A stretch of 64,000 bases of DNA from contig OZ059899.1 in the NCBI GenBank assembly GCA_964057225.1, forward strand, positions 11,346,001 through 11,410,000, in the 5' to 3' direction. A model generated the notes under the pieces. It did no database searches and was not told where the DNA came from. It worked only from the letters and a program-made list of their open reading frames with translations. Positions within the stretch are counted from its first letter, which is position 1, and each line of letters begins with the position of its first letter. Origin of the DNA: Auanema rhodensis. Lineage: Eukaryota; Animalia; Nematoda. Below are positions 2,824 through 64,000 of the stretch, one piece after another. The translations under genes and the position numbers were made by a program.

Positions 2824-2836
2824 GGTGGAACCTCCA
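2824..2836 (-). promoter_or_regulatory. Primer-binding site complementary to tRNA-Gln 3' end
   Basis: Minus-strand TGGAGGTTCCACC directly abuts the LTR end; it is the reverse complement of ...GGTGGAACCT-CCA of eukaryotic tRNA-Gln. Confidence 0.85.
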
Positions 2837-3173
2837 CGTTCCGTTATGCTCTCACGTCGATCCTATAGACCAATAAAGCCTACAAGATGAGTGTGATAGT
2901 ATTCCAGATGTAGCGGTAGATAAAGAGCATAATGGATAAACATAAGACTCGAGAAAGAAAGGTTTATTATGTCTACATGATTACAACAAGTTATATAAGT
3001 CTACATAAAGATATAAAGTGAAAGAGAGCTAAGAAAGGAAGACCAACCATCCATAGTCATTCCATAAGGCAAAGCTGAAGTCTGTGTTCCATATGAAGGG
3101 CGTGTTGTCCTCTCTCAGCCTCATGTCGTCTGATTCTAACCCGCCTGCTACGTATTGATTTCCGAATGGAACG
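2837..3173 (-). repeat. LTR (337 bp) shared by two tandem elements
   Basis: Minus strand begins CGTTCCATTCGGA (same as the LTRs at 45299 and 57003) and ends GAGCATAACGGAACG; AATAAA at 2963-2968; PPT on one side, PBS on the other. Confidence 0.9.
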
Positions 3174-3175
3174 TG

Positions 3176-3185
3176 CCATTTTTTC
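3176..3185 (-). promoter_or_regulatory. Polypurine tract (imperfect)
   Basis: GAAAAAATGG-CA just before the LTR; equivalent to GAAAAAGGG-CA at 56992-57002. Confidence 0.7.
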
Positions 3186-3870
3186 GAGTTTATGTCGCGT
3201 CCTCGCGAATAGCAAAATATGTGGCTTGTTCCAATCGTAGCAGAAGGTTTAGTTTTAAAAAATAAAAATTACAATGTTAACATAAAAATAGTAAAGATAA
3301 ATTACAATATAATGTTAAACAATATTATCTGAAAAGAATTTAATAAAAATTATTTGAAAATACATGAATATTAAGTAATAAAACAATCTTTTAGAATACC
3401 AGGGCTATATTTTGTCAGCGAGAGTGCGCAAAATAGCTTTTTAGGCACGACGCTGCATGTCTAACTTGTTTGAGTATAGAGAAACGAGAGTCATGCTATA
3501 TTATCGATGGAGCTAGCATGTTTCTTCAGCGTATTCAAAGCGAATTGTAATAATAAAAAAAAATTAAACTAAATCCCATATAATTTCCGGAATTGAATCA
3601 TTAACTACTTGATAAGGACTGTTGCTCAGATGAATATGCAATATAATGTCTCTTATCTTTCATTTCTTCTTTATTTACGGGAAATTATTTGAAATTGATG
3701 AAGTTTTATAATCATATATGCTTTGAAACTGAAATGCTTTTTGATTATTAGCTTACATCTCGTCTTACTCAAGTTTTTCAATGATATAATAATATGAATA
3801 GCTCTGGTTTTTTAAAAGAAAGTTGATACAAAGTTTTACAATAATTTTATCAATCTCGAAATTATTTCTT

Positions 3871-5754: not shown

Positions 5755-6501
5755 ACGGTCTGATCTTGGTGGTTTTAAGACCGGTGCATCAATTTTCTTT
5801 TTAGTGTATCAACAGCTTGTTGACTTTTGTCATTCCATTGAAATTTCACATCAAGTTTTGTATGGTCGTATAAAGAGCTTGCGATGTGTGCAAAATCTTT
5901 AATAAATTTCCGAAAGAATCCTACCATTCCCAAAAATGCTCTTACTCCTGTAGGTGACTTTGGAGCAGGATAGTCTTGAATGACGGAGACTTTCTGTGGA
6001 TCTGGTTTGACCCCATCTCTTCCGACAATTAAACCAAGAAATTTTACTTCAGGTCTTGCAAAAGCGCATTTCTTGAGTTTAATTTACATGCCTAATTTCT
6101 TTACTTCTCTGAGAATCTCAGCTATATCGTCAAGATGTTGTTCTGCAGTGTCTGATATAACAAGTAAATCATCCAAATAAACAAAGAGTCGGCATTTACA
6201 TCGGCTTTGAAGGTATCGTACTGCTGTTTGAAAGGTATGTGACCACATAACCCCATAGGCATCCTTCTATATTGATAAGTACCGGTGTTTGTTGTAAATG
6301 CTGTTAATGGTCGATCTGATTTTTTTAATGCTATTTGGAAGAATCCGGATACTAAATCAAAGTTAGAAAAATATTGTGATCCGGCTGCCATATCGACAAT
6401 GTCAGAGATGTTAGGTATGATGTATGTTTGCTTGCGAGTGACGTTATTTAGAGCACGGAAATCGGTTACGAAACGGAATGTTTCATCTTTCTTTTCTAAA
6501 A
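5755..6501 (-). pseudogene. pol: pol fragment: reverse transcriptase with several frameshifts
   Basis: FSNFDLVSGFFQI and RMPMGLCG; YLDD in another frame; small duplication near 6500 and deletions near 6240 and 5790 relative to the intact copy. Confidence 0.88.
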
Positions 6502-9365: not shown

Positions 9366-9868
9366 CTAGATCGTGGTCAGCATTTTACAACATTGATAAA
9401 ATAGAAACTGAGAAAAAAACATCAACAAATGACACTATTAACTTGGTTTTTTGAACAGCTTTTTTATAATTCTTTTTCACTATGAGAGAACTTATATTTA
9501 TTGCTTTTTCAAAATTTTCCATTTTTAACATTATACATCTTGACTATCACACATTGAGAACAACAGTTGGCAATGTTGGTTGTCACGTCATATTTCATGC
9601 AGTTAGATTTTCAGACACATTAATACCTTTAACCATTCTTCTTATGAGTTTTGTAACGATAGATCGTAATAGGAAATGAATTGCTATAATATGAAAAAAT
9701 ACAAGACATAGTCAACATTGATTTCCCCAAATAGTATCATGTTTGCTTGTTATTCAATTAGAACACTTTTTTTTTGATTGTTTTCTTGAAATATTCTTTT
9801 TTTTCTTTAACAAAGTTATGACTGAGATCAAAATTTGAACTTACTTTTGAACAATTAAACAGAAATTT

Positions 9869-45239: not shown

Positions 45240-45298
45240 TACGAAAGTACGAAATAACAAAGCGCTGATTATAGGAAACGTGAATGAATGCAGATATT

Positions 45299-45664
45299 CG
45301 TTCCATTCGGAGACTCTATATATGTAACTGCAGGGTTAGAGCCAGACCGACTAGAGGAATGAGGAATGGCACCGCCTTCCCTCATGCCCCTATTCGGGAG
45401 TTCGCCCCTTTACAAGCCCATGGACGGTTTGCATCTAACTTAGTTAATCTTATATATTAGTCTTTGTCTTGTAAATGTAGTTTACTTTATACTTGTGTTA
45501 TTGTATTGTAATGATATTGTATTGTGTATAATAAACCTATATATTTCCTTATCTTATGTAATCCTTATGCTCTGTTTCCATACCGCTACATTTATGGAAT
45601 ACTATACGCGTAGTTGAGCAGACTGCAATGGTCTGTTCAATATACGTAGGAGCATAATGGAACG
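45299..45664 (+). repeat. 5' LTR (366 bp)
   Basis: Direct repeat of 57003-57368 (5 substitutions by eye); termini CGTTCCATT...AATGGAACG; AATAAA at 45530-45535. Confidence 0.96.
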
Positions 45665-45677
45665 TGGAGGTTCCACC
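45665..45677 (+). promoter_or_regulatory. Primer-binding site complementary to tRNA-Gln 3' end
   Basis: TGGAGGTTCCACC immediately after the LTR. Confidence 0.87.
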
Positions 45678-46648
45678 TCGAACTCATTTTTGTCGCAAAA
45701 ACTCGCATAAAAAGTCCATATTTTGATATCTAAATTAAAACTTCCTCCACGGTTAGCAACATAATGAGGGCGCCAACTTGTATAAGGTGCAGGTACAAGG
45801 GATCTCTCTTTTAGAGAGCTAGGACTATATAATTTTGAAATTTCACCCGCTGTCCCCACTCATAAAACCGTCTGAGTGTCCACCCTTATAATACCGTATC
45901 CTGCACCGCTTCTCTTGCATTTTTTTTTGAGGACGTTTGGATCGAAATAGGGGACAATTTCACCAAACGAAATTTTGATTACATTATTATTTGGCAACGA
46001 GGAGTTAGAATGAAATTTTGAAAGCGCACAAAGTTTAATATTTTATTGTGGTCAGGACTAGAGATTTGAAAGTTAAATTCAGGCGTAAAAGAGCATGCTA
46101 ACTAAATATTTTTGCGGGAGCCGTTATTCGGTTTTTATTTTTTTTTTTTTGATTGTGAGAATAGACCACACTAGTCCGAAAAATCCTGGCACAAATTTTA
46201 TTGCCTGTCAGGTCATTTTGGCGAAAGCACATGGGCTACGGATGTTTTCTTCTCCGTAGAATGTGTCACCTTCCTCAGCTCATTTTTGTTGCTAACATCA
46301 TAAGATATTCCCACACACCTACCGTAGTCTTCATATTGTAATATTCTATAAATTAGTAGAATGGTTTAAAGAAAAAATTGCGTTTTATAAACGAGCTTTG
46401 GTCTCAGTCCATTAGTAAAATGAGCAATCTTTTTAAATATTCTCGGAATCTCATTAACATGCCATAATCATTCCGAAAAAGAATCGCCCACGGCTTTTAA
46501 TAATCAACGTGCACATGAGCCATTTTCCCAAGGCGCACGCACTCCTTCTTTATTAATAAGCTCGACCAAAGTTTGTGTTATGGAAAAAAAAAAGAGAGAG
46601 AGAGAACAAATGAGTGAAATTAAGTATTTATTATATATAAAACAATTG

Positions 46649-47182
46649 TTAAAAGCCCCATTTAAAATGCAACTGTCTCACAAATTCTATAGGCTGTGAG
46701 ATGGGCTCATCGCTAGGCTCTAAATACTGCGAATACACTGAATCCGCAGAGGTCCTTAGCAATAAGCCCATAGGAGACTGTTCATAAAATAAATAAATTT
46801 TAAACAAAATTTTAGACATATAATCATAAAAATCATGAGACTTATGCTCATACCAATTCCAAGGGGATGCGACCAGATTTGGGTTTTCATACCAATGCGC
46901 GCACAAGTCGGTGAGGCACCATCGCTGGATAGCTGCAACCTCATCCGCTATTTCCTGCATTAGGGAGAAGTTTACTAATCCCCTTCCCAGATAATGCATC
47001 TTTAAATCCTCAATAAACTAAAAATTCTTATTAAGATAACATGTTTCTTTGTTTTAACCAACCATCTTAATTATGTCTGGGTGCGGCCTATAAGCTAACA
47101 CTTCGTCTTGATCATACAAGACGAGGTCAGCGTACAGCTTCCTCAAGACAAAAGTCATTCCCGATAGACCTTCATAAGCCAT
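46649..47182 (-). CDS. Predicted two-exon antisense accessory gene, 162 aa, unknown function (exons 47182-47063 and 47017-46649)
   Basis: 40-codon exon, 45-nt GTTGGT...TTTTTAG intron, in-frame join to the 116-aa ORF; A-rich start context; AATAAA 16 nt after the stop. Confidence 0.6.
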
Positions 47183-47595
47183 TCTTTGATTTATTTTTTT
47201 TTTTCAGCTCTACAAATATAAAGATTCTTATGCATAAAAAGGGGACATAAAACGACTGAAAATCTCTCTCATACTTTCAAGAATTCAATTAGAGTAAAGT
47301 ATTAAGATTGAGGCTAGAAAGAGCGAAGACCAACAAAATTTATAATTGATGAACATCTGTGAAATAGAATAAAGAAAAGAGAATACGGTAGATAGGCGGA
47401 GCCAGATCTCAGGCCAAGATTTTAAAACTCTTTCTCATCTAATAACGATTCTCGGCGAAAGACGCCACGTCTCAATCTTCAAACTTTTCTTACTTTTCCC
47501 TATAACCGACCTGAATTTCTTGTCACTCATTCAACGTCAACATCCCCCATATAACGAAACACTCGCGGTTTTTCCAAACCAAGAGTGATTCCAAA

Positions 47596-50500
47596 GTGGC
47601 ACGAAGATACTCTTCGGCCGTCCCTGCTTTATACCCTTCTGAGTCCAGTGACGACATCGCAGTCGCCAGTCGAACTAGAAGCCGCACTCGACTCCTCAGT
47701 GTTCAGATTGAAGAGCCTGAACAAGAGGTAAAACCCAAAGTCGAGAAAACCTTCATTCCTCGAGAAGGCACGTATTCACCTCCGGACAACACCGAGGAGG
47801 ACCCTGATTTCTATATTCAGGACTACAATATTCAAACTTCAGCTTCAACTCCAAAGGTACACTCTTTTAAAAGTAATAAAAAGATTCAAAAAATTCAAAA
47901 ACCAAAACAAATAACCTCTAATACTTCACCAGCCACTCCCCACCTAAACTTATCAACTTTATCAGTTAATACTGATAACGATCTTGCATCTTCTTTTGAA
48001 CTAACTCTAACACCGCAGGCATTTTCCACTCCGATAGAAAACTCACAACTTAATAAAACCTCATCTCTCACTATTCGCAAATCACCCTTATCAGTTATCA
48101 CTGATAAGCTTGATTCGAAAAAGCTTGATTCTAAAAAGATTAATAAAAGAAAAACTAATACACCGCGTAGGCGCTCAACCTCTAATAATCCCATAGAACC
48201 AAATCAGGAAATTACCGAAGTTTTGCCCTTATCACTAACTACTGATAAGTTCAAAAGTAAGAAATCTTTAACAGCTCGCTTAATAAAAGTTTTGAATTTG
48301 TCTCCAGGGGAGGTAACAACAGAACAAGTTGATAACTCTCTTCACGTATCCTCCAACCCAACCCTTAATAAGTCAGATAGCGCTATACCCAGCTCAAGCG
48401 TTTCAATACATTCGACGCCTCAGGCAACGAGTCGAGTTATCAAACTCCCAGGGAAGCGGTTCTCCTCAGCCGCCCCTACCATTAGTTATCCAACATCTGG
48501 TAACTCGAAAAAGGGAGGTAAGAACTTAACGGCGAGAAGCTCAGGCAGTAAAGGGATTACGTCATCTCGCACATACCCTGAGGATATACCAACCATGACG
48601 GAGACACCACGTCTTCCGGGAGCTGGTAAATCTACCATTGCGCACGCATTAAGCTCACCTTATTGCCCCATATACGACGGAAGTCGTAACTTTAGAGATT
48701 TCGTGGCAAAGTTTAATACCTTTTCTAACGCCTTAGGCTTAGTGATGCCCGAAAGACTAACTATTTTACCATTACTATTGAAAAATGATAGAGCAGAGGA
48801 AGCTTATTTAGAGCTACCTGACAAGGTCAGAACAGCTGGACCTTGGGTTACCCTAATAGAAGAGTTAACATCCAAGCTGTGTCCCGAATACAATCAAGAC
48901 CCTGCCCTTATCACACTTCAAAACAGCACTCAAGGCGATTTATCAATTGATGGTTTTGCACAAACGTTAAGAAACCTCAGCTTAAATGCTTTCTCTAATA
49001 GTGATACTCATAAAGATCACATTCTGAGGTCCACATTTTTGAGAGGCTTGAAAAATACGATACGCCCAGGGGTAATTCGAGCAAAACCCAAAACTTTTGC
49101 TGAGGCTGTTGATAGTGCTCGCTGGGAGGAATCAATTGCAAACCAAGTAGCAGACCCTCAGGCGCTATTGGTTAACGCAATTGAAAGAACTTTCCCCCCG
49201 CGCAGAAACAATGGTGGGAGAGGTATGGCAAGAGGTTATCAATCTTTTAATAATAAAAATTATCAAAATTATAATAATTATAACAATTATCATCCAAACT
49301 TTCAAAACAATCAAAATTATCATAAATTTGCAAAAAATCAAAAAGGCTGGAATTTCCAAAACCCATTTGCTAGGAACCGCAATTTTGGTGACCGCGGTCG
49401 AAATTATCAAAATCAAAATCAAAATGGGTATCAAAGAAGCCATAATGCATCACAAAATCAAGAAATGAGCAATAATAGACAGAGAAATAACAGTACCTTT
49501 AGGGGAAATAACAACAATAGAGGCAGAGGTAGAGGCTCAAGAGTCAATAATTTGACTCTGATATCTCCTTTGACTTTAGCCGTAGCTTTATCAGTAATCT
49601 TATCACTGGTTACAACAGCTGAAGCATACCAGCTATGTACTAAAGCTACTGGAGGAGCCCTTCTCCGTCCCCCATCTCTCCGAAAATGCTTATTACCACC
49701 AATAAAGCATATCTTACGAACAAAAGTTCATCTTTATACAAGGAATCAAACGGCACATGAATGGGATGCATGGAGATGCTCCAAAGAAATTCATAAAATG
49801 TGTATCAGAGACCTTTTGTTCCTTAGAGATACCAATACAACGATAGCGAGAATTGAAAAGATACCAGCTGCAGAATGCAGACTGGCAGTGAGAGATAGAA
49901 GATGGAATTGGAGTGAATTAAAGAAGATCGACAGCATAACATATGCAACTGACGAGCCTTCCTTCTCGCCAGGCCGATCTTTTAATAATGAACTATGTGA
50001 AGAGAAAGCCAGATTGGTTATCGAAAGAGGGGTTATGACACGGATGCCAGATGAAACTATAATCTCCAATTTAATACTAAATACTGAAGGATGCTTAGCG
50101 CATCATGGAGAATGTGCATCAGATACCTCAATCATCATATGGGAGAAACAGCCTTATGAATATCGATGCAACTATATCGACATGAGTGAATATGATGCGA
50201 TAATTGGAGACGGCATTATTCTGTTACCAACCACTCAATCAGCCCTTGTAATCGATCAAAAAGAGATGCCGAAGCAAATATCTTCTTGTTTTAAACAGCC
50301 AATCTTCCACACCACAACTGGCAATTACATTCTCTTACCACAGTACCCAAATGACACCAATATCCATGTTTTAATAGAGAGAGAATATAAGAAACTTCCG
50401 GCGAAAAGAAATAAAAGAGCAATTGCGGAATGCACGGTTGAATTAAACAAGGAGTGGATACAAAAACAGGAAGATTTTGAAACTTTAATATTAAATATTT

Positions 50501-53500
50501 GTCCTTATCCTTTCTTACGACCGGTGATGAGTAATCCTGGTATTTATCAGATAATACCGCTTATAAAGGCCAGACGAGCTGTCAACCCTTCATATTCAAT
50601 TATTGATTGGGTTTCAGCACATCCCGAGAAGTTTTATTTCTTCTTAAGAAGTCCCGTATCTGATAAATCCATACAACGTTTCCTTCAAACATACGAAATA
50701 CACGACCCTGAGGAAGCAATACTTTATTTTCTTGCGCAAAAGGAACTGGCAGCAACCACTCGCGGCGCTATACGGTATTTAACCTCAAAACAATTATTAG
50801 AACAGATAGGTGACAGATTAACAGCACACGAATTTGACGAAAAACTACTAGAAAAGGACGGATCCTACCGCGAAAGAGCCGAAAGCATAGCGATGGAGCT
50901 AGCTTATACACCGGTAATATTTGAAAACAATCTGTCGGTACCATCAAGGCAAGAGGTTTTAAAATCCTTTGTGAACATGCCGCCTATCCGACCAACTTTA
51001 ACAACTGACAATGCTGATGAGCGTATAGTACTTAGAAATACACTTTACTTATACCATAACTTGATGACATTGCGAGTAATAAGGCCAAATAAAACAGCAG
51101 CAGCCGTAGATGATGAAAAGTTCCGACAATTAACAATCAATGTGCCAGATACCAACAAACTATATCGAGATAAAGATTCTAACTACGGTATATCGATGGG
51201 CCCCCACCCTCGCATTCAAACCCCAAGCGCGGATACACGCCAGCTACTTATAAAAACATTTTTACCACTGTTAGAGGATATTGAAACACCGCCTTATCTG
51301 ACTAGAAGACTGTCATTAACGACAACAACGGACAAACCCGCTTCACTAGTTCAGGAGACAACTATAAGCTATACGACTCGGATTCCGACGACAACCATAG
51401 TTGACACGACAACAGCCGTGATAACTACGACTCTCTCGCCAACAACATTAGCAACAGTCACTGACACGGCGTCACGAACCTTAAGGAAACAAAGAACATC
51501 ATCTCCACCCGTAGAAACCAGAGAAATTCAGGCTCAGGCAACGTATACAGCGTCAAAAGTGAACAACGAAATACAATTCAACCTCAACGTATCTCGCAGA
51601 ATAGCTCAAGATCATCTACAATATACAACAACACTCATACAAGAAGAGCTACAGAAACGTTTTATGGAATCTTATGAATCCATATGTGAGATTCAAAATA
51701 GATACCTCGAGCTATGGCGTTCTATTTTACACATAGAACCCACAATAGCAATGAGGACTATTTTAGGAAGAGAGGATATTGCAGCCCGTTTCGTAGGCAG
51801 CGATATAGTTCATGTTCATATATGCTTACCTCTTCAACCTAAAGCTGTTTATCATAATCATAAGATTAATGATACATGCTATTTGGAAACACCAGTAATA
51901 ACAGAAGATGAGAGATTATATTTTGCTGCTCCAGGATCAAGAGACTTATTAACACATGGAAAAGAGATAGATTGCGAACATGTACCAACAGATGTGTACT
52001 ATCAAAATGGAGAATGGATAAATATAAATGGATCGGTTGAAGTAAAACCAATATCACTCTTTGATAAAGCGCAATACCACCAATTAACACCTTTAAAGTT
52101 CACAGGCGCTAACTTATACACCAATTTATCATTGAGAGTTTACTCAATGTCAACAGCTATTGCATATGGAGCAAGTTTAGCATCCATACGACAGAACCAT
52201 GTTTTACATACTATTCACAACGATCCAAAAATTACGTCCGCCTTTAATCTTTTGAAAAAGGGCAGTGACTATATCTCTAAAGCAGCTGAGTTCACAACTT
52301 CCGCCTGGATTAGCGTAAAGCAATTTCTAATAGGATCAATTGAGAGAACACTCATCTTCATAGGATCAATGGTTACGATTGCCGCAGTATTAATAATTCT
52401 TTTCGTTGTTGCTAAATTTTGGTTCTTCAGAGCCACTCCACTAACCGTAATGCATGTCCACGAAATAGATAATGAGCCCCCAGGCTATGAAGAAACATTG
52501 GAACTTGTAAGCCGCCCAGACCAACAGATGCCAGATAACATCATGAAGCAATACTATCCTGCTTTAGTAACATTTATTCCAATCGCAATACCATTTGTTG
52601 CTTCTATTGCATCAGCGGAAACAAAGTTACCATTAATATATATATCAGTTGAAGATAAACTGATTTTAGCTTTATGGGATTCAGGCTCATCAGTGTCATA
52701 TGTTAGGCTCTCCACCCTCAAATATCTGAACATGGCCGAAAATGTCAAGAAGAGACATTTAGTAGCGATGGCAGCCAACAAGTCCACTTTCACATTTTAT
52801 GGAAAGATAAATCTTGTAATTGAAATTGCCGGCTACGAGATCGAACACACCTTTTTGGTCTCAAACGATCATGACTGTCCTGCTCCCGCTTTAATTGGAC
52901 TAGATTTCATGAAAGCGCTTGACAGCGAAAACATCGACGTCAGCCTTAAACCATCCAAGAAGAGGTTGGAGATTGGAAACAATGCCATCCCATTAATAGG
53001 AAACGAATCTATTAAGCATACGGAGATAACTGTGAATATCATTAATTTAAGAACAAAAACATTAAAGCCTGATGAAGAGGCACCTATCCCAATAAAGACA
53101 GATAAACCACTAGAATCTAACGAAGTGGTTGTCTTAGGGGATAGTGGAAGCGCATTAAAATCATTATATCCAACTGCGTTTCGTGATACCAGTGGAGTAT
53201 ATGTTATGTTCCGTAACAATACCGATGAAACAATAGCTATGGAAGCTAATTCAGTCATCGGACAGGCAATAATTGGAGAAATTCCGGCTTGTGAACCCTT
53301 TAAGCATAAGCCAATTCTCCCATATGTTCCGCCAGAAGCCGATTGGGAGAGTAAACTACCATATTTTCCAAGAGACTTCATAAAAGATCTTGATCTAGAG
53401 AATGCTGATCTCACGAAAGAAGAAAAACATGAGCTTACAAAAATAATTGAAAGCCATCGTGAGGCATTTCTTAACGAGGACAGGAAAATAGGCTTATTTA

Positions 53501-56301
53501 AAGGTCCTATAGAGCATACCATACCATTGAGAACAGATATGGATATGCCAAAGCCGAGAATAACACGTATTCCCTTAGGAAAACAGGAAGAAATTGAAAA
53601 ACAAGTCAAAGAAATGCTTGAGCAAGGCATAATAGAGCCTTCTACATCTCTATTTAATAGCCCTGTAGTACTAGTTAAGAAGAAAGATGACACGTATAGG
53701 TTTGTGACAGATTTTCGAGCTTTAAATAATGTCACACGCAAGCAAACTTATGTCATTCCAAGCATTTCTGACATAGTTGATTTGGCAGCAGGCGCCCAAT
53801 TTTTCTCAAACTTCGATTTAGTGTCAGGATTTTTTCAAATATCCTTGAGAAAATCAGATCGACCACTAACAGCATTTACGACCACATCCGGCACATACCA
53901 GTACAAACGGATGCCGATGGGCCTTTGTGGAGCCCCTCATACCTTTCAAACAGCAGTAAGGTATTTGCAAAGTAAATGTTCTTGTAAACTATTTGTTTAT
54001 TTGGACGATCTATTAGTTATATCTGATACAAGAGAACAACATCTCAAAGATATCGATGATTTACTGCAAGCAGTAGAAGAATTGGGAATGAAGATAAAGC
54101 TTAAGAAATGCGCTTTTGCTCAACCAGAAGTGAAATTTCTAGGACTTATTGTAGGACGTCAAGGTATAAAACCTGACCCTCAAAAAGTCGCCGCCATACA
54201 AGATTATCCGGCACCAAAGAATGCAACAGGTGTACGAGCATTCTTGGGAATGGTTGGATTCTTTCGCAAATTCATGAAAGATTTTGCACGTATCGCAAGC
54301 CCTTTATACGATCTGACAAAGGCAGATACTGAATTCAAATGGGAAAACAAACATCAAGAAGCTTTAGACCTCCTTAAAAGAAGTTTAATACAGGCACCCG
54401 TTTTAAGCCCACCTAAATCGGACCGCTTGTTTATAGTTGAAAGCGACGGTAGTAACATCGCCATAGGTGCTGTATTATTACAACCGGAAGATCCAAAACA
54501 ACCTCTGAAAAATCTACACCCTATCGCATTTGCAAGCAGAAAACTAGTTAAAGCCGAACGTAACTACGCACCAATCGAGATAGAAGCATTAGGCCTTGTA
54601 TATGCATTAAATCAATTCCGTACATACATTCTTGGAACTCATACTATATGTATTACGGACCATCGACCTCTTACCAGCTTAATGACACGCAGAGACTTAT
54701 TTGGTCGTCTTGCGAAGTTCCAGCTGGTCATCCAAGAATATGATATTGAAATAAAATATCGCGCAGGCCAATTAAATAAAGTATGCGATGCTCTATCTCG
54801 ATATATAGGTGAAGAAGCTAACGATGCTAAGCCGGAAACAAAGAAGAAGAAAATGGAAGAAATTCACATTAACGCCATAAATACACCAACAATAAAGGAA
54901 ATTCAACTAAGCACCCCTTGGATTAAACGGACGATAGCGGAGATTGAATATAGAGCACAAAAGAACATGACAGCTAATGACAGATATTGTGTCATAAATG
55001 ACTTGCTCTATACAAAACCAACAGACAAAAAGCCACAACCCGCTATCGTAATACCACAAGAACACCCCATAATTGAGGAAATAATCAAAGTTTTTCATGA
55101 GGATCCTACAATTGCAGCACATCAAGGAATTATTAAAACAAAAGAAGCAATTCTAAGAAGATTCTATTGGACAAATATGCAGAACGACATTACTAAATTC
55201 ATCAAGAACTGCATTAAATGTGCTCAAAGAAAAAAAGATCCACATTCCATGACGGTACAACCAATAGGTCATTTTGAGATACCAAGCAAGCCATTTGAAC
55301 GAGTCCACATGGACGTAATGGGACCATTTCCCCCTTCAAAAAGAAACTGTACCTACGTCATTACCATGCAAGACGCATTTACAAAATGGTCAACAACAAT
55401 TGCTGTACCACAAATAACAACGGAAATCACAATTGACCGATTTCTAAGACATTTCGTTTACATTTTTGGACCACCCCATCGCTTGATCACCGATAGAGGT
55501 TCGAACTTTGTATCCAAAAAGTTCGAAGAAATGTGTACTAAACTTGGAATCAAACATGAACCAACACTACCACACCAAAAGAACTCAAATGGACAAGTGG
55601 AAAGACTTCACAGAACCCTCGAAGAAGGATTAACCCACTACTTAAAAGAGGACCTTAGTGACTGGGATACTGTATTACCAAAAATCACTTTTGCTATTAA
55701 CAATATTCAGCACGCGACTACAGGGATTGCGCCTTACATTGCATTATTCGGTAAAGAATGCAGAATGTCAATGGACGCTGAATTACCAGAAACGATCACC
55801 AAAATTCAAGAAATTTCTGAAGAATTACTCCAAAGAAGACCAGATATGGACAAGAGAGACGAAATAATAAAGAACCGCATAGCTAAAAATCAAGAAAATG
55901 CGAAAAAGAAGAAAGATAGAACGCAAAGAGCACACCATAGAGACATTCAACCGGGCGACATGGTGATGACGACTATAAAATCACACCAAATCGGCCAAAA
56001 GCTTCGGAAAAGCTATGATGGACCATACGAAGTCATCAACGTAGAAGGATCAAAAGTTCAAATCAGAAATTCATCAGGAAAATTACAAGATATCCACAAA
56101 GATAACTTGAAAATCTTCTCTCCTGCTTCACAAAACATCTCTTACAACACTCGCGCAAGATTTCTAGAAAGTCAAGCAGAAGAAGATAGCGACATCGAAA
56201 TAATAGAAGTGATCAACAGGAACAACAAGGATAGCATAGATACAGAGCCAGAAGATGAAAATGAAGACGAAATATGGCTTCCGAGGAATGAAGAAGAATA
56301 A
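47596..56301 (+). CDS. Gag-Env-Pol polyprotein (capsid; gB-like class III fusogen; protease; RT; RNase H; integrase). True start uncertain: frame open from 47515, first ATG at 48595
   Basis: Capsid motifs 48660-49140; signal-like segment ~49552-49626; Cys-rich ectodomain; TM ~52350-52428; LWDSGS 52672; YLDD 53998; RNase H ESDGS/TDHRPL/DALSR; integrase HHCC, DDE, YDGPY. Confidence 0.96.
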   Translation: MARRYSSAVPALYPSESSDDIAVASRTRSRTRLLSVQIEEPEQEVKPKVEKTFIPREGTYSPPDNTEEDPDFYIQDYNIQTSASTPKVHSFKSNKKIQKIQKPKQITSNTSPATPHLNLSTLSVNTDNDLASSFELTLTPQAFSTPIENSQLNKTSSLTIRKSPLSVITDKLDSKKLDSKKINKRKTNTPRRRSTSNNPIEPNQEITEVLPLSLTTDKFKSKKSLTARLIKVLNLSPGEVTTEQVDNSLHVSSNPTLNKSDSAIPSSSVSIHSTPQATSRVIKLPGKRFSSAAPTISYPTSGNSKKGGKNLTARSSGSKGITSSRTYPEDIPTMTETPRLPGAGKSTIAHALSSPYCPIYDGSRNFRDFVAKFNTFSNALGLVMPERLTILPLLLKNDRAEEAYLELPDKVRTAGPWVTLIEELTSKLCPEYNQDPALITLQNSTQGDLSIDGFAQTLRNLSLNAFSNSDTHKDHILRSTFLRGLKNTIRPGVIRAKPKTFAEAVDSARWEESIANQVADPQALLVNAIERTFPPRRNNGGRGMARGYQSFNNKNYQNYNNYNNYHPNFQNNQNYHKFAKNQKGWNFQNPFARNRNFGDRGRNYQNQNQNGYQRSHNASQNQEMSNNRQRNNSTFRGNNNNRGRGRGSRVNNLTLISPLTLAVALSVILSLVTTAEAYQLCTKATGGALLRPPSLRKCLLPPIKHILRTKVHLYTRNQTAHEWDAWRCSKEIHKMCIRDLLFLRDTNTTIARIEKIPAAECRLAVRDRRWNWSELKKIDSITYATDEPSFSPGRSFNNELCEEKARLVIERGVMTRMPDETIISNLILNTEGCLAHHGECASDTSIIIWEKQPYEYRCNYIDMSEYDAIIGDGIILLPTTQSALVIDQKEMPKQISSCFKQPIFHTTTGNYILLPQYPNDTNIHVLIEREYKKLPAKRNKRAIAECTVELNKEWIQKQEDFETLILNICPYPFLRPVMSNPGIYQIIPLIKARRAVNPSYSIIDWVSAHPEKFYFFLRSPVSDKSIQRFLQTYEIHDPEEAILYFLAQKELAATTRGAIRYLTSKQLLEQIGDRLTAHEFDEKLLEKDGSYRERAESIAMELAYTPVIFENNLSVPSRQEVLKSFVNMPPIRPTLTTDNADERIVLRNTLYLYHNLMTLRVIRPNKTAAAVDDEKFRQLTINVPDTNKLYRDKDSNYGISMGPHPRIQTPSADTRQLLIKTFLPLLEDIETPPYLTRRLSLTTTTDKPASLVQETTISYTTRIPTTTIVDTTTAVITTTLSPTTLATVTDTASRTLRKQRTSSPPVETREIQAQATYTASKVNNEIQFNLNVSRRIAQDHLQYTTTLIQEELQKRFMESYESICEIQNRYLELWRSILHIEPTIAMRTILGREDIAARFVGSDIVHVHICLPLQPKAVYHNHKINDTCYLETPVITEDERLYFAAPGSRDLLTHGKEIDCEHVPTDVYYQNGEWININGSVEVKPISLFDKAQYHQLTPLKFTGANLYTNLSLRVYSMSTAIAYGASLASIRQNHVLHTIHNDPKITSAFNLLKKGSDYISKAAEFTTSAWISVKQFLIGSIERTLIFIGSMVTIAAVLIILFVVAKFWFFRATPLTVMHVHEIDNEPPGYEETLELVSRPDQQMPDNIMKQYYPALVTFIPIAIPFVASIASAETKLPLIYISVEDKLILALWDSGSSVSYVRLSTLKYLNMAENVKKRHLVAMAANKSTFTFYGKINLVIEIAGYEIEHTFLVSNDHDCPAPALIGLDFMKALDSENIDVSLKPSKKRLEIGNNAIPLIGNESIKHTEITVNIINLRTKTLKPDEEAPIPIKTDKPLESNEVVVLGDSGSALKSLYPTAFRDTSGVYVMFRNNTDETIAMEANSVIGQAIIGEIPACEPFKHKPILPYVPPEADWESKLPYFPRDFIKDLDLENADLTKEEKHELTKIIESHREAFLNEDRKIGLFKGPIEHTIPLRTDMDMPKPRITRIPLGKQEEIEKQVKEMLEQGIIEPSTSLFNSPVVLVKKKDDTYRFVTDFRALNNVTRKQTYVIPSISDIVDLAAGAQFFSNFDLVSGFFQISLRKSDRPLTAFTTTSGTYQYKRMPMGLCGAPHTFQTAVRYLQSKCSCKLFVYLDDLLVISDTREQHLKDIDDLLQAVEELGMKIKLKKCAFAQPEVKFLGLIVGRQGIKPDPQKVAAIQDYPAPKNATGVRAFLGMVGFFRKFMKDFARIASPLYDLTKADTEFKWENKHQEALDLLKRSLIQAPVLSPPKSDRLFIVESDGSNIAIGAVLLQPEDPKQPLKNLHPIAFASRKLVKAERNYAPIEIEALGLVYALNQFRTYILGTHTICITDHRPLTSLMTRRDLFGRLAKFQLVIQEYDIEIKYRAGQLNKVCDALSRYIGEEANDAKPETKKKKMEEIHINAINTPTIKEIQLSTPWIKRTIAEIEYRAQKNMTANDRYCVINDLLYTKPTDKKPQPAIVIPQEHPIIEEIIKVFHEDPTIAAHQGIIKTKEAILRRFYWTNMQNDITKFIKNCIKCAQRKKDPHSMTVQPIGHFEIPSKPFERVHMDVMGPFPPSKRNCTYVITMQDAFTKWSTTIAVPQITTEITIDRFLRHFVYIFGPPHRLITDRGSNFVSKKFEEMCTKLGIKHEPTLPHQKNSNGQVERLHRTLEEGLTHYLKEDLSDWDTVLPKITFAINNIQHATTGIAPYIALFGKECRMSMDAELPETITKIQEISEELLQRRPDMDKRDEIIKNRIAKNQENAKKKKDRTQRAHHRDIQPGDMVMTTIKSHQIGQKLRKSYDGPYEVINVEGSKVQIRNSSGKLQDIHKDNLKIFSPASQNISYNTRARFLESQAEEDSDIEIIEVINRNNKDSIDTEPEDENEDEIWLPRNEEE

Positions 56302-57002: not shown

Positions 57003-57368
57003 CGTTCCATTCGGAGACTCTATATATGTAACTGCAGGGTTAGAGCCAGACCGACTAGAGGAATGAGGAATGGCACCGCCTTCCCTCATGCCCCTATTCG
57101 GGAGTTCGCCCCTTTGCAAGCCCATGGACGGTTTGCATCTAACTTAGTTAATCTTATATATTAGTCTTTGTCTTGTAAATGTAGTTTACTTTATCCTTGT
57201 GTTATTGTATTGTAATGATATTGTATTGTGTATAATAAATCTATATATTTCCTTATCTTATGTAATCCTTATGCTCTGTTTCCATACCGCTACACTTATG
57301 GAATACTATACGCGTAGTTGAGCAGACTACAATGGTCTGTTCAATATACGTAGGAGCATAATGGAACG
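57003..57368 (+). repeat. 3' LTR (366 bp)
   Basis: Direct repeat of 45299-45664. Confidence 0.96.
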
Positions 57369-57896
57369 ATTCCGATTCATTAACTAGATCGTGGTCAGCA
57401 TTTTACAACATTGATAAAATAGAAACTGAGAAAAAAACATCAACAAATGACACTATTAACTTGGTTTTTTGAACAGCTTTTTAATATTTCTTTTTCACTA
57501 TGAGAGAACTTATATTTATTGCTTTTTCAAAATTTTCCATTTTTAACATTATACATCTTGACTATCACACATTGAGAACAACAGTTGGCAATGTTGGTTG
57601 TCACGTCATATTTCATGCAGTTAGATTTTCAGACACATTAATACCTTTAACCATTCTTCTTATGAGTTTTGTAACGATAGATCGTAATAGGAAATGAATT
57701 GCTATAATATGAAAAAATACAAGACATAGTCAACATTGATTTCCCCAAATAGTATCATGTTTGCTTGTTATTCAATTAGAACACTTTTTTTTTGATTGTT
57801 TTCTTGAAATATTCTTTTTTTTCTTTAACAAAGTTATGACTGAGATCAAAATTTGAACTTACTTTTGAACAATTAAACAGAAATTTAAAAAATATT

Positions 57897-57970
57897 TGCC
57901 GCCAGCAGGGGTCGAACCTGCGACCTTGGGCTTATTAGACCCACGCTCTAACCGACTGAGCTATGGCGGC
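57897..57970 (-). tRNA. tRNA-Ile(AAT)
   Basis: Array copy. Confidence 0.95.
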
Positions 57971-58560
57971 TACGAAAGTACGAAATAACAAAGCGCTGAT
58001 TATAGGAAACGTGAATGAATGCAGATATTCTCAATTCCGATTCATTAACTAGATCGTGGTCAGCATTTTACAACATTGATAAAATAGAAACTGAGAAAAA
58101 AACATCAACAAATGACACTATTAACTTGGTTTTTTGAACAGCTTTTTAATATTTCTTTTTCACTATGAGAGAACTTATATTTATTGCTTTTTCGAAATTT
58201 TCCATTTTTAACATTATACATCTTGACTATCACACATTGAGAACAACAGTTGGCAATGTTGGTTGTCACGTCATATTTCATGCAGTTAGATTTTCAGACA
58301 CATTAATACCTTTAACCATTCTTCTTATGAGTTTTGTAACGATAGATCGTAATAGGAAATGAATTGCTATAATATGAAAAAATACAAGACATAGTCAACA
58401 TTGATTTCCCCAAATAGTATCATGTTTGCTTGTTATTCAATTAGAACACTTTTTTTTGATTGTTTTCTTGAAATATTCTTTTTTTTCTTTAACAAAGTTA
58501 TGACTGAGATCAAAATTTGAACTTACTTTTGAACAATTAAACAGAAATTTAAAAAATATT

Positions 58561-58634
58561 TGCCGCCAGCAGGGGTCGAACCTGCGACCTTGGGCTTATT
58601 AGACCCACGCTCTAACCGACTGAGCTATGGCGGC
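58561..58634 (-). tRNA. tRNA-Ile(AAT)
   Basis: Array copy. Confidence 0.95.
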
Positions 58635-59234
58635 TACGAAAGTACGAAATAACAAAGCGCTGATTATAGGAAACGTGAATGAATGCAGATATTCTCAATT
58701 CCGATTCATTAACTAGATCGTGGTCAGCATTTTACAACATTGATAAAATAGAAACTGAGAAAAAAACATCAACAAATGACACTATTAACTTGGTTTTTTG
58801 AACAGCTTTTTTATATTTCTTTTTTCACTATGAGAGAACTTATATTTATTGCTTTTTCAAAATTTTCCATTTTTAACATTATACATCTTGACTATCACAC
58901 ATTGAGAACAACAGTTGGCAATGTTGGTTGTCACGTCATATTTCATGCAGTTAGATTTTCAGACACATTAATACCTTTGACCATTCTTCTTATGAGTTTT
59001 GTAACGATAGATCGTAATAGGAAATAGGAAATGAATTGCTATAATATGAAAAAATACAAGACATAGTCAACATTGATTTCCCCAAATAGTATCATGTTTG
59101 CTTGTTATTCAATTAGAACACTTATTTTTTGATTGTTTTCTTGAAATATTCTTTTTTTTTCTTTAACAAAGTTATGACTGAGATCAAAATTTGAACTTAC
59201 TTTTGAACAATTAAACAGAAATTTAAAAAATATT

Positions 59235-59282
59235 TGCCGCCAGCAGGGGTCGAACCTGCGACCTTGGGCTTATTAGACCCAC
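59235..59282 (-). pseudogene. 5'-truncated tRNA-Ile (3' 48 nt only)
   Basis: tRNA sequence stops after agacccac; D arm and 5' acceptor strand replaced by the insert. Confidence 0.92.
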
Positions 59283-60286
59283 ATTTTTTTTCATTTTGAA
59301 GATAGAGGGCTCTTCAAATAGCCTCCCAGGTTCACACTTTCTATTCTATGCCCTGTTAACGTAAAAGACTATTAGAGGAAGAAAGATTCATTCATATGCC
59401 ATTCAGATATACATAATACAGAATATAAGGACTAGAAGATATATAATAAGACTAGATAAAGTACATAGAAGACTAGAGTGAATGTAATAAGACTAGATAT
59501 ACATCACTAATGAGACTAGAGATAGTCTTACTAAAGGACAAGGATAAAACGGTGGTTCAGACTAGATGAGTCATAAGATAAAGACAGCAACGAGGAGAGA
59601 GAAAAGCGACCGTCCGCGACGGTGGTATAAAACAGAGTGCCCGTGAATCTCATCAGCCAACGTGATGAGATTGCATCGATTGAATGATGAATAATCGCAT
59701 TCGCGATATTCCGGGCCAGGAGAGAGAAATCAGAACTGATTTCATTCTGCTAGTTCCTCCGCAAACTGCAGCTTGCATAATACACCAGGATGATCGTGGT
59801 CCAGTCCGCTTCCTTTGCACACATGACATATTTTCTTCATCTTCTCCACTGCTAGTTCCTCCGCAAACTGCAGCTTGCATAATACACCAGGATGATCGTG
59901 GTCCAGTCCGCTTCCTTTGCACACATGACATATTTTCTTCATCTTCTCCACACACGGTTTTCCAAAGTGGTTCCGCAAACACTTCAAGCACATGTTGATC
60001 AACTTGCAACGCTTGACGCGTTGTGCTGCAGTCTTGTAGACTGTGCATTTTCCCATGGTGTGGCCCTTCTTCCAACAGAGTTGACATTTCATGTCTTCTT
60101 CCATTTTTCTGTACTTCACTTTAGAGTTGTTCTGCTTTTTTGGTGCAGACATATTCTGACTTTTGTTAGGCATCTTTGCGTTGCCGTTATCCTGGAGTTG
60201 ATCAAGGGAATCGCTCCATTCTTTGATGTTATCAAGACTGAAATAATGATGGTTTTTATACATAGTATACCTCCCCCCGGCGAACA
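59283..60286 (-). mobile_element. ~1-kb BEL/Pao-like fragment with zinc-knuckle ORF
   Basis: Foreign sequence replacing ~266 bp of array; right end ...GGCGAACA (TGTT on the minus strand); Cys/His motifs typical of BEL/Pao Gag. Confidence 0.6.
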
Positions 60287-60287
60287 T
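59742..60287 (-). CDS. Multi zinc-knuckle protein, BEL/Pao Gag-like (181 aa; 173 aa from the ATG at 60263)
   Basis: CQLCWKKGHTMGKC, CLKCLRNHFGKPC, and two copies of CHVCKGSGLDHDHPGVLC. Confidence 0.6.
   Translation of the reverse strand: MFAGGRYTMYKNHHYFSLDNIKEWSDSLDQLQDNGNAKMPNKSQNMSAPKKQNNSKVKYRKMEEDMKCQLCWKKGHTMGKCTVYKTAAQRVKRCKLINMCLKCLRNHFGKPCVEKMKKICHVCKGSGLDHDHPGVLCKLQFAEELAVEKMKKICHVCKGSGLDHDHPGVLCKLQFAEELAE
59747..59950. repeat. Perfect 102-bp tandem duplication (34 codons)
   Basis: ctgctagttcc...cttctcca starts at 59747 and again at 59849. Confidence 0.93.
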
Positions 60288-60634
60288 TATACATCTTGAC
60301 TATCACACATTGAGAACAACAGTTGGCAATGTTGGTTGTCACGTCATATTTCATGCAGTTAGATTTTCAGACACATTAATACCTTTAACCATTCTTCTTA
60401 TGAGTTTTGTAACGATAGATCGTAATAGGAAATGAATTGCTATAATATGAAAAAATACAAGACATAGTCAACATTGATTTCCCCAAATAGTATCATGTTT
60501 GCTTGTTATTCAATTAGAACACTTTTTTTTTGATTGTTTTCTTGAAATATTCTTTTTTTTCTTTAACAAAGTTATGACTGAGATCAAAATTTGAACTTAC
60601 TTTTGAACAATTAAACAGAAATTTAAAAAATATT

Positions 60635-60708
60635 TGCCGCCAGCAGGGGTCGAACCTGCGAACTTGGGCTTATTAGACCCACTCTCTAACCGACTGAGCT
60701 ATGGCGGC
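60635..60708 (-). tRNA. tRNA-Ile(AAT) with two substitutions (D stem, variable loop); possibly defective
   Basis: c>a at 60662 and g>t at 60683. Confidence 0.8.
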
Positions 60709-61299
60709 TACGAAAGTACGAAATAACAAAGCGCTGATTATAGGAAACGTGAATGAATGCAGATATTCTCAATTCCGATTCATTAACTAGATCGTGGTCA
60801 GCATTTTACAACATTGATAAAATAGAAACTGAGAAAAAAACATCAACAAATGACACTATTACCTTGGTTTTTTGAACAGCTTTTTAATATTTCTTTTTCA
60901 CTATGAGAGAACTTATATTTATTGCTTTTTCAAAATTTTCCATTTTTAACATTATACATCTTGACTATCACACATTGAGAACAACAGTTGGCAATGTTGG
61001 TTGTCACGTCATATTTCATGCAGTTAGATTTTCAGACACATTAATACCTTTAACCATTCTTCTTATGAGTTTTGTAACGATAGATCGTAATAGGAAATGA
61101 ATTGCTATAATATGAAAAAATACAAGACATAGTCAACATTGATTTCCCCAAATAGTATCATGTTTGCTTGTTATTCAATTAGAACACTTTTTTTTTGATT
61201 GTTTTCTTGAAATATTCTTTTTTTTCTTTAACAAAGTTATGACTGAGATCAAAATTTGAACTTACTTTTGAACAATTAAACAGAAATTTAAAAAATATT

Positions 61300-61373
61300 T
61301 GCCGCCAGCAGGGGTCGAACCTGCGACCTTGGGCTTATTAGACCCACGCTCTAACCGACTGAGCTATGGCGGC
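61300..61373 (-). tRNA. tRNA-Ile(AAT)
   Basis: Array copy. Confidence 0.95.
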
Positions 61374-61965
61374 TACGAAAGTACGAAATAACAAAGCGCT
61401 GATTATAGGAAACGTGAATGAATGCAGATATTCTCAATTCCGATTCATTAACTAGATCGTGGTCAGCATTTTACAACATTGATAAAATAGAAACTGAGAA
61501 AAAAACATCAACAAATGACACTATTAACTTGGTTTTTTGAACAGCTTTTTTATATTTCTTTTTTCACTATGAGAGAACTTATATTTATTGCTTTTTCAAA
61601 ATTTTCCATTTTTAACATTATACATCTTGACTATCACACATTGAAAACAACAGTTGGCAATGTTGGTTGTCACGTCATATTTCATGCAGTTAGATTTTCA
61701 GACACATTAATACCTTTAACCATTCTTCTTATGAGTTTTGTAACGATAGATCGTAATAGGAAATGAATTGCTATAATATGAAAAAATACAAGACATAGTC
61801 AACATTGATTTCCCCAAATAGTATCATGTTTGCTTGTTATTCAATTAGAACACTTTTTTTTTGATTGTTTTCTTGAAATATTCTTTTTTTTCTTTAACAA
61901 AGTTATGACTGAGATCAAAATTTGAACTTACTTTTGAACAATTAAACAGAAATTTAAAAAATATT

Positions 61966-62039
61966 TGCCGCCAGCAGGGGTCGAACCTGCGACCTTGGGC
62001 TTATTAGACCCACGCTCTAACCGACTGAGCTATGGCGGC
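61966..62039 (-). tRNA. tRNA-Ile(AAT)
   Basis: Array copy. Confidence 0.95.
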
Positions 62040-62638
62040 TACGAAAGTACGAAATAACAAAGCGCTGATTATAGGAAACGTGAATGAATGCAGATATTCT
62101 CAATTCCGATTCATTGACTAGATCGTGGTCAGCATTTTACAACATTGATAAAATAGAAACTGAGAAAAAAACGTCAACAAATGACACTATTAACTTGGTT
62201 TTTTGAACAGCTTTTTTATATTTCTTTTTTCACTATGAGAGAACTTATATTTATTGCTTTTTCAAAATTTTCCATTTTTAACATTATACATCTTGACTAT
62301 CACACATTGAGAACAACAGTTGGCAATGTTGGTTGTCACGTCATATTTCATGCAGTTAGATTTTCAGACACATTAATACCTTTGACCATTCTTCTTATGA
62401 GTTTTGTAACGATAGATCGTAATAGGAAATAGGAAGTGAATTGCTATAATATGAAAAAATACAAGACATAGTCAACATTGATTTCCCCAAATAGTATCAT
62501 GTTTGCTTGTTATTCAATTAGAACACTTATTTTTTGATTGTTTTCTTGAAATATTCTTTTTTTTCTTTAACAAAGTTATGACTGAGATCAAAATTTGAAC
62601 TTACTTTTGAACAATTAAACAGAAATTTAAAAAATATT

Positions 62639-62686
62639 TGCCGCCAGCAGGGGTCGAACCTGCGACCTTGGGCTTATTAGACCCAC
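62639..62686 (-). pseudogene. 5'-truncated tRNA-Ile (3' 48 nt only)
   Basis: Same junction as 59235-59282. Confidence 0.92.
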
Positions 62687-63690
62687 ATTTTTTTTCATTT
62701 TGAAGATAGAGGGCTCTTCAAATAGCCTCCCAGGTTCACACTTTCTATTCTATGCCCTGTTAACGTAAAAGACTATTAGAGGAAGAAAGATTCATTCATA
62801 TGCCATTCAGATATACATAATACAGAATATAAGGACTAGAAGATATATAATAAGACTAGATAAAGTACATAGAAGACTAGAGTGAATGTAATAAGACTAG
62901 ATATACATCACTAATAAGACTAGAGATAGTCTTACTAAAGGACAAGGATAAAACGGTGGTTCAGACTAGATGAGTCATAAGATAAAGACAGCAACGAGGA
63001 GAGAGAAAAGCGACCGTCCGCGACGGTGGTATAAAACAGAGTGCCCGTGAATCTCATCAGCCAACGTGATGAGATTGCATCGATTGAATGATGAATAATC
63101 GCATTCGCGATATTCCGGGCCAGGAGAGAGAAATCAGAACTGATTTCATTCTGCTAGTTCCTCCGCAAACTGCAGCTTGCATAATACACCAGGATGATCG
63201 TGGTCCAGTCCGCTTCCTTTGCACACATGACATATTTTCTTCATCTTCTCCACTGCTAGTTCCTCCGCAAACTGCAGCTTGCATAATACACCAGGATGAT
63301 CGTGGTCCAGTCCGCTTCCTTTGCACACATGACATATTTTCTTCATCTTCTCCACACACGGTTTTCCAAAGTGGTTCCGCAAACACTTCAAGCACATGTT
63401 GATCAACTTGCAACGCTTGACGCGTTGTGCTGCAGTCTTGTAGACTGTGCATTTTCCCATGGTGTGGCCCTTCTTCCAACAGAGTTGACATTTCATGTCT
63501 TCTTCCATTTTTCTGTACTTCACTTTAGAGTTGTTCTGCTTTTTTGGTGCAGACATATTCTGACTTTTGTTAGGCATCTTTGCGTTGCCGTTATCCTGGA
63601 GTTGATCAAGGGAATCGCTCCATTCTTTGATGTTATCAAGACTGAAATAATGATGGTTTTTATACATAGTATACCTCCCCCCGGCGAACA
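62687..63690 (-). mobile_element. Second copy of the ~1-kb BEL/Pao-like fragment
   Basis: Near-identical to 59283-60286, offset 3404 bp, identical junctions. Confidence 0.6.
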
Positions 63691-63691
63691 T
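63146..63691 (-). CDS. Multi zinc-knuckle protein, BEL/Pao Gag-like (copy 2)
   Basis: Translation identical to 59742-60287. Confidence 0.6.
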   Translation of the reverse strand: MFAGGRYTMYKNHHYFSLDNIKEWSDSLDQLQDNGNAKMPNKSQNMSAPKKQNNSKVKYRKMEEDMKCQLCWKKGHTMGKCTVYKTAAQRVKRCKLINMCLKCLRNHFGKPCVEKMKKICHVCKGSGLDHDHPGVLCKLQFAEELAVEKMKKICHVCKGSGLDHDHPGVLCKLQFAEELAE

Positions 63692-64000
63692 TATACATCT
63701 TGACTATCACACATTGAGAACAACAGTTGGCAATGTTGGTTGTCACGTCATATTTCATGCAGTTAGATTTTCAGACACATTAATACCTTTGACCATTCTT
63801 CTTATGAGTTTTGTAACGATAGATCGTAATAGGAAATGAATTGCTATAATATGAAAAAATACAAGACATAGTCAACATTGATTTCCCCAAATAGTATCAT
63901 GTTTGCTTGTTATTCAATTAGAACACTTATTTTTTGATTGTTTTCTTGAAATATTCTTTTTTTTCTTTAACAAAGTTATGACTGAGATCAAAATTTGAAC

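Follow-up and report, generated by a model that had tools for sequence, protein, structure and literature searches.

A probable spliced antisense gene upstream of gag in an envelope-bearing Ty3/gypsy element of the nematode Auanema rhodensis, and its possible role as an accessory gene

The window, a stretch of 64,000 nucleotides from contig OZ059899.1 of Auanema rhodensis, contains two LTR elements that are related to each other and face opposite ways, and the remainder of these 64 kb is mostly a 665-bp tandem array. The array extends from about 9370 to 45312 and from 57370 to 64000, with both elements inserted in it; 62 copies of the reference piece are 96 to 100% identical and display a higher-order periodicity. 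The right-hand part of the array is interrupted twice by a non-array insert of about 500 bp (about 59650 to 60300 and 63050 to 63700, spacing 3404 bp), which has overlapping ORFs in both directions, includes an internal repeat of 103 bp, and gave no meaningful Pfam match. The right element is intact, with mismatches between its two LTRs at 5 of 365 positions. Its sense-strand features are as follows.

45300 to 45664, plus strand: 5' LTR, 365 bp, with 5 differences from the 3' LTR
45665 to 45676, plus strand: tRNA-Gln primer binding site, the reverse complement of a listed 12-mer
47515 to 48594, plus strand: open frame without ATG, continuous with the polyprotein, its start under coding constraint
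48595 to 56301, plus strand: single ORF of 2568 amino acids, GAG, gB-like ENV, PR, RT, RNaseH and IN
57004 to 57368, plus strand: 3' LTR with AATAAA at 57234

In supplement 1 of PMC13524379, of which the leading 15 nematode rows were used here, the 12-mer is the Gln_UUG_CUG entry of two Caenorhabditis elements. Within the 2568-residue product, the capsid-like gag match was weak (Pfam, E = 0.025). A gB-type glycoprotein is located between gag and pol (PF24664, E = 7e-15, and PF00606, E = 8e-9; residues 1005 to 1148), in a region bounded by hydrophobic windows at residues 321 to 339 and 1254 to 1272. Protease, reverse transcriptase, RNase H, and integrase follow in Ty3/gypsy order, with Pfam positions 1351 to 1440, 1694 to 1852, 1943 to 2049, and 2159 to 2327. 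Nine of the best 10 of 524 polyprotein matches (E up to 1e-20) were nematode records; Auanema, Caenorhabditis, Diploscapter, and Meloidogyne were among the genera of the best matches, and the best ones in Auanema, Caenorhabditis, and Diploscapter had 38 to 49% identity. Judged by these protein matches, the nearest kin of the right element are rhabditid nematode elements. GAG-ENV-POL elements with a gB-type env are known in Nematoda (PMC13524379, crediting Sacco et al. 2022). The right element shares with these retroviruses the single ORF for gag, gB-like env, PR, RT, RH, and IN, the tRNA-Gln site, and an LTR length of about 365 bp, and the agreement in env layout and primer site indicates that it is a new member of this known group. 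A 253-aa ORF antisense to the protease and RT region (52869 to 53630, minus strand) has no Pfam match and is probably a shadow of pol. The motif ATTC is present on both sides of the element (45296 to 45299 and 57369 to 57372). Two ATTC copies three bases apart occur in all 58 empty array units, which means that the flanking copies may reflect a 3-base loss at insertion instead of a true target-site duplication.

The sense frame is open from 47515, far upstream of its first ATG at 48595. Comparison of 19 codons from position 47542 with the left family yielded 11 identical, 5 synonymously changed, and 3 non-synonymously changed codons. Such a conserved block without ATG suggests, from the codon pattern, either initiation at a codon other than AUG or an upstream exon joined by splicing; among the contigs described below, no sense-strand splice joint for the upstream frame was found. 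A frame of this kind lies upstream of the first gag ATG in both families, with 360 codons in the right one (47515 to 48594, plus strand) and about 270 in the left one (650 to 1501, minus strand). With the sense frame open from 47515, the true leader is about 1.85 kb long, and just 360 bp or so separate the sense coding region from the ATG of a minus-strand gene, in a head-to-head arrangement.

This gene had been proposed by an initial annotation made from the letters alone. Two sources bear on it: four public runs, X1 to X4, which contain the stretch, come from one study and one organism, and were available as contigs with the RNA type guessed; and a homologous protein, P0122. The features of the gene are as follows.

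47256 to 47262, minus strand: TTTTCAG upstream of the antisense ATG, a candidate trans-splice or cis acceptor by its sequence
47063 to 47182, minus strand: coding part of exon 1, 40 codons from the ATG at 47182, which stands in the context AAAGAATGG, present in junction-spanning contigs of X1, X2, and X3
47018 to 47062, minus strand: 45-nt phase-0 intron, GTTGGT to TTTTTAG, skipped exactly in three of the four runs
46649 to 47017, minus strand: coding part of exon 2, 122 codons plus stop, 58% identity to P0122 over the full length
46627 to 46632, minus strand: AATAAA, predicted poly(A) signal

Exon 1 begins with AAAGA-ATG at 47182 on the minus strand, and joining of the two exons gives a product of 162 amino acids. 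The minus-strand ORF is intact, lies inside the LTRs, and does not overlap gag-pol. A second AATAAA is located downstream at 46554 to 46549, minus strand. All coordinates that had been put forward hold, from the ATG at 47182, the 40 codons, and the 45-nt GT..AG segment to the stop at 46649 and AATAAA at 46632 to 46627. The intron had been described as containing an in-frame stop; a stop is indeed present, but the count is two, a TAA and the TAG of the acceptor itself. The label of a Trp/Tyr-rich product needed correction to the measured 3.1% Trp and 8.0% Tyr.

Evaluation of the gene model needs to consider how often such frames arise by chance. A stop-free frame of at least 122 codons appeared in 6.3% of 5,000 Markov-1 resamples of the 1849-nt leader, which makes exon 2 taken alone weak evidence. 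The full model, defined as an ATG, a 40- to 60-nt GT..TTTYAG intron, at least 160 codons, and AATAAA within 60 nt, was found in none of 3,000 leader resamples, with the model having been specified after the real gene was seen. Eight minus-strand ATGs are located upstream of the exon 1 start, within 47183 to 47620, so that translation of the antisense frame depends on the position of the 5' end. No joint or loose end was found at the TTTTCAG at 47256 to 47262, and contigs of X2, X3, and X4 run through it. On the sense strand, a T-run ending in TTTTCAG, a consensus nematode acceptor, is present just upstream of the antisense ATG (47189 to 47207, plus strand). A sense trans-splice at this site would strip the complement of the antisense gene from the gag-env-pol mRNA; no loose end occurs there in the contigs of the four runs.

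The splice junction between 47063 and 47017, which the initial annotation had named as a check capable of refuting the gene, was found in contigs of three of the four runs. When contigs were aligned to 45300 to 48800, those of X1, X2, and X3 had position 47017 joined to 47063 with 45 bases skipped, the ends of the skipped segment reading CT..AC on the plus strand, and the shorter side of the junction contigs comprises 78, 229, and 57 letters, respectively. The X4 contig stops at 47018 with a 9-letter overhang that equals the adjoining exon 1 letters. In all four runs the bin depths over 46938 to 47054 are those of the exon-2 contigs alone, meaning that no contig of any run covers the intron. 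Across the whole element, 47017/47063 is the sole splice-type joint, the other listed joint being that of the LTR to the primer site. A processed antisense transcript is thus indicated by the spliced junction in three of four runs of one study with the RNA type guessed, and it is assigned to the minus strand by its GT..AG ends. On the exon-2 side, contig cover ends at 46673 to 46854, short of the poly(A) site near 46610 named in the initial annotation, and 46232 to 46672 is not covered in any of the four runs. The spliced contigs reach element sequence common to the sister family, up to 47611 in X2 and 47412 in X3.

Contig cover of the element is strongly uneven. In X2 and X3, it is deep at the 3' end of the element (about 53.9 to 57.27 kb) and terminates at 57272 and 57253, respectively, shortly after the AATAAA of the 3' LTR at 57234. 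Cover of the central part is absent in X2 (48794 to 52703) and almost absent in X3, and a separate shallow patch of cover extends from 46.75 to 48.8 kb in both. This pattern is a weak hint of 3'-biased poly(A) libraries plus a second polyadenylated transcript, since it fits both, with the limit that contigs reveal neither strand, level, nor RNA ends and drop rare forms. Depth is 2 to 6 and patchy, and the summed length of the assemblies is about 20 million letters. Roughly 1% of contig letters disagree with the window, which indicates that the contigs come from other copies or alleles; two differences fall into exon 2, one synonymous and one non-synonymous.

The left family, at positions 1 to 9370 on the minus strand, appears to be a head-to-tail arrangement with one LTR, near 2830 to 3180, in common. 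Its first copy has a frameshifted pol and a 5' side cut by the array, and is followed by another copy represented by its leader and gag. Protein identity between the right and the left family is 60% for env-protease and 71% for RNase H-integrase. The initial annotation had stated that the equivalent interval is about 650 bp shorter in the left family and the cassette absent there. The earlier anchors do yield about 650 bp, and between two strong flanking anchors the interval measures 1245 bp in the right element and 551 bp in the left, a difference of 694 bp. A profile of exon 2 and its homologue matched exon 2 only in the six-frame window, the next best match having an E of 5.8 and lying outside the left leader, so the absence of the cassette was borne out. 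This indicates that the antisense gene is not essential to such elements, albeit with the left copy being itself broken. Loose ends of X1 to X3 match the left LTR and leader, so the left family is present in the same runs. Terminal repeats of a nested transposon around the cassette were not found above chance, only short pairs. One 12-nt inverted pair with the earlier anchor motif brackets the cassette (46319 to 46330 and 47380 to 47391); as the leader contains 65 short pairs of this kind, it is possibly due to chance.

A HMMER search with the X read-through as the query against 1.84 billion protein representatives (E up to 0.001) returned two matches. The first, P0122, comprises 125 amino acids from a 1035-nt Logan contig and has 58% identity over all of exon 2 (E = 6.9e-38), with 70 invariant columns, both Cys and all four Gly kept, and the same final residues. 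Conservation of the frame in other copies had been set as a further check that could refute the gene, and in this diverged homologue both frame and C terminus are kept. Similarity starts at the splice acceptor, which is the beginning of exon 2. As read from the protein letters alone, the residues before it are F-Q, encodable by TTTCAG where the window has TTT TAG, and TTTCAG is a verified acceptor quoted in PMC10309623. P0122 may thus represent exon 2 as predicted from unspliced DNA, with an intron that matches in position and phase. Splice-site conservation, also proposed as a check, therefore extends to a probably kept acceptor position. The 58% identity is near the 60% and 71% between the two families, so P0122 would suit a sister element family, with no proof attached, and its source may lie outside any retroelement. 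The second match, P0123 (E = 1.2e-10 summed over seven repeats), is a repeat protein and was rejected as chance, the match having 26 bits and running into the intron. Exon 1 had no homologue in the same HMMER search of 1.84 billion representatives. A word-indexed homologue search with exon 2 alone gave no candidate, a two-sequence profile recovered only P0122 among 26 candidates of lengths 67 to 219, and related loci were found neither in metagenome contigs nor in viral contigs.

The predicted protein has 19.3 kDa, a pI of 5.0, 3.7% Arg, and 4.3% Lys, and its highest 19-residue hydropathy is 0.9, with no transmembrane stretch. Conserved with P0122 are a C-x4-C-x-H stretch, a P-W-x-W-Y patch, and a C-terminal K-W-G-F. 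WG dipeptides occur in Argonaute-binding viral suppressors, and the K-W-G-F contains a single one, which is a lead only. AlphaFold2 single-sequence models were all-helical with low confidence (mean pLDDT of 41 and 54). No Pfam family matched either protein version at E up to 10; in PHROGs, the best E was 0.12 for P0122 and no match resulted for the 162-aa protein (P0001), which had none among PDB sequences either. The profile gave five PDB sequences at E = 0.2 to 0.86, three of them pertussis toxin S3 chains, which is chance level. The fold comparison that had been recommended earlier was done with Foldseek at E up to 0.001 against PDB and viral structures and gave no match. The ESM Atlas leads Peptidase_S28 (0.83) and DUF3800 (0.81) were rejected, because the homologues disagree and shuffled proteins score alike. 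None of these comparisons pointed to a partner or a pathway. An acidic, soluble, predicted-helical protein with aromatic patches would fit protein binding better than Rev-like RNA binding.

On this evidence, the locus very probably contains a real spliced coding gene on the minus strand. The preferred interpretation, given a probability of about 0.5, is that an antisense coding gene in the leader of a GAG-ENV-POL Ty3/gypsy retrovirus encodes an accessory factor that acts in trans, likely in counter-silencing by protein binding. That the 162-aa protein serves the element in trans has slightly better than even odds when taken by itself. Counter-silencing is the single most likely specific function, but as such it is tentative; it is favored because an element in the nematode germline gains most from blunting small-RNA silencing. 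The antisense transcript would be driven by a promoter at or above about 47.3 to 47.6 kb, run away from gag-pol, and end at the AATAAA near 46630. The genomic RNA would carry only the complement of the intron, and each new copy should consequently inherit the whole gene, with intron and poly(A) signal. The initial annotation had argued in the same sense that an intron placed antisense can outlast reverse transcription. The logic is sound, and the intron is present in an element with LTRs differing at 5 of 365 positions, but the orientation is not demonstrated as the cause, as Cer1 retains sense-strand splice sites in unspliced genomic RNA (PMC10309623). The proposal that the gene was captured is unsupported, since no host-gene homologue was found and the difference between the families may reflect either a gain in the right one or a loss in the left one.

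In the C. elegans germline, silencing is the default for genes that lack introns (PMC12055998), which offers a reason to keep an intron, and introns protect from Argonaute silencing (PMC12055998, citing Makeyeva 2021). The intron may therefore help the mRNA to escape default germline silencing of intronless genes, and the protein would bind proteins in trans to blunt host silencing. Against this, a single intron did not suffice for extrachromosomal arrays to be expressed in the germline (PMC12055998). The absence of the gene from the sister family, the lack of a homologue of exon 1, and the eight upstream ATGs also count against the preferred interpretation. A much wider reading would be that the leader of nematode GAG-ENV-POL retroviruses is a swappable slot for intron-bearing antisense genes, that the 162-aa protein founds a new counter-silencing family directed against small RNAs, and that the antisense-protected intron licenses germline expression; taken together, this is doubtful.

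Should the protein of the same gene regulate the RNA of its own element instead, it may damp transcription as HBZ does or export unspliced genomic RNA as CERV does. The head-to-head position of the antisense gene and the sense frame agrees with this, as do two precedents: HBZ, which is encoded by a spliced antisense mRNA, represses the sense transcription of HTLV-1 (PMC10186651), and export of the genomic RNA of a nematode gypsy element requires CERV, an accessory product that this element makes by splicing (PMC10309623). The protein is acidic, however, with the low Arg and Lys contents given above and with no bZIP or other Pfam domain, it has 162 amino acids compared to 517 in CERV and is encoded antisense, and the sister family manages without the gene, so that this explanation is unlikely, albeit the leading one of the alternatives. 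Next to it, and likewise unlikely, comes the gene as cargo with no action on retrotransposition, in the form of a captured host gene, a piece of a mobile element, or a selfish gene of the toxin/antidote type. A self-contained unit of ATG, intron, stop, and AATAAA in an interval of 650 to 700 bp that the sister family does not have would be expected of cargo, opposite-strand read-through capture would retain introns, and P0122 may have a non-element context. Among 1.84 billion representatives, though, no host or mobile-element homologue beyond P0122 was found, convincing terminal repeats at the cassette are lacking, and no partner gene is present in the leader.

The antisense RNA could also be the working part, by pairing with the leader of the genomic RNA or by hindering sense transcription, with the protein being secondary. 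Its complementarity to this leader would allow that, the assembled form at the locus is the spliced one in all four runs, and dual RNA and protein roles are discussed in PMC7264820 and PMC10186651; the conservation of 122 codons at 58% identity up to a common stop would nevertheless be left unexplained, making this account improbable. Even less can be said for the runs being DNA and the joined form an element copy without the 45 bases, in which case there would be no splicing at all. The guessed RNA type would permit it, a depth of 2 to 6 with patchy cover also fits shallow DNA, and the divergence of about 1 in 100 points to other copies or alleles. Against it, the missing segment has exact GT..AG ends, no intron-bearing contig exists in four runs, the assemblies have about 20 million letters with strongly uneven cover along the element, and P0122 independently marks the same exon boundary. 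A size of 45 nt is, moreover, typical of nematode introns, and precise loss of the intron from a DNA copy would need an earlier splicing event, which leaves this explanation very improbable. The preferred interpretation remains that of a spliced gene with a product acting in trans for its element.

Antisense extra ORFs are known from plant and fungal LTR retrotransposons, such as Grande gene23, RIRE2, and Retand TRP28 (PMC7264820, PMC11963269), and Boty brtn is a fungal antisense extra gene named in PMC8365987. The gene described here resembles them in being an extra antisense gene within an element, and in those also no function is assigned in the sources cited. The antisense gene of Grande has its own internal promoter (PMC7264820, PMC11963269). 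Most of the plant and fungal ORFs are located between pol and the 3' LTR and some upstream, whereas the present gene lies between the primer site and gag, in an env-carrying element of an animal host, and has no TRP28 or other Pfam domain. With its position upstream of gag and no Pfam match at E up to 10, it is not of the plant aORF-3R/TRP28 type. The word "intron" is absent from PMC7264820 and PMC11963269, which treat the plant antisense ORFs.

With HBZ of HTLV-1 the gene has a spliced minus-strand mRNA and a small extra protein in common (PMC10186651). HBZ is a bZIP protein driven from the 3' LTR, whereas this is a 5'-end gene without a bZIP match. A long HBZ-like splice from the 3' LTR to exon 1 gave no joint among the contigs, which drop rare forms; without bZIP and within this limit for the LTR link, the gene is not of the HBZ type. 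CERV of Cer1 is likewise an accessory protein that a nematode Ty3/gypsy element produces by splicing, and it has no homology outside nematodes (PMC10309623). It is encoded on the sense strand by five exons, has 517 amino acids, exons common with gag, and a G-protein-like domain, none of which applies to an antisense gene for 162 residues, so the gene is not of the CERV type. The main text of PMC13524379, in which "antisense", "accessory", and "splic" do not occur, describes no extra leader gene for nematode GAG-ENV-POL elements, which distinguishes them from the present one. A search of mainly open-access literature yielded no description of spliced antisense genes in nematode LTR elements, upstream of gag or elsewhere, with Sacco et al. 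2022 possibly bearing on the point. Antisense extra genes are therefore already known in LTR elements, and one that is spliced and precedes gag in an element of a nematode appears to be new as far as the literature search reached.

A gene that is antisense, split by an intron, and positioned upstream of gag is missed by ordinary ORF-based annotation. Leaders of several Caenorhabditis relatives appear to be 1.2 to 1.9 kb long, as estimated from LTR coordinates and the 3000-nt extension of PMC13524379, so that the same slot is open to study in tractable species. If the preferred interpretation is true, envelope-bearing nematode elements would rank as "complex" retroviruses by virtue of an accessory gene. 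A small, expressed orphan protein carried by such an element would also provide a direct handle on the question of how LTR elements withstand small-RNA silencing in the nematode germline.
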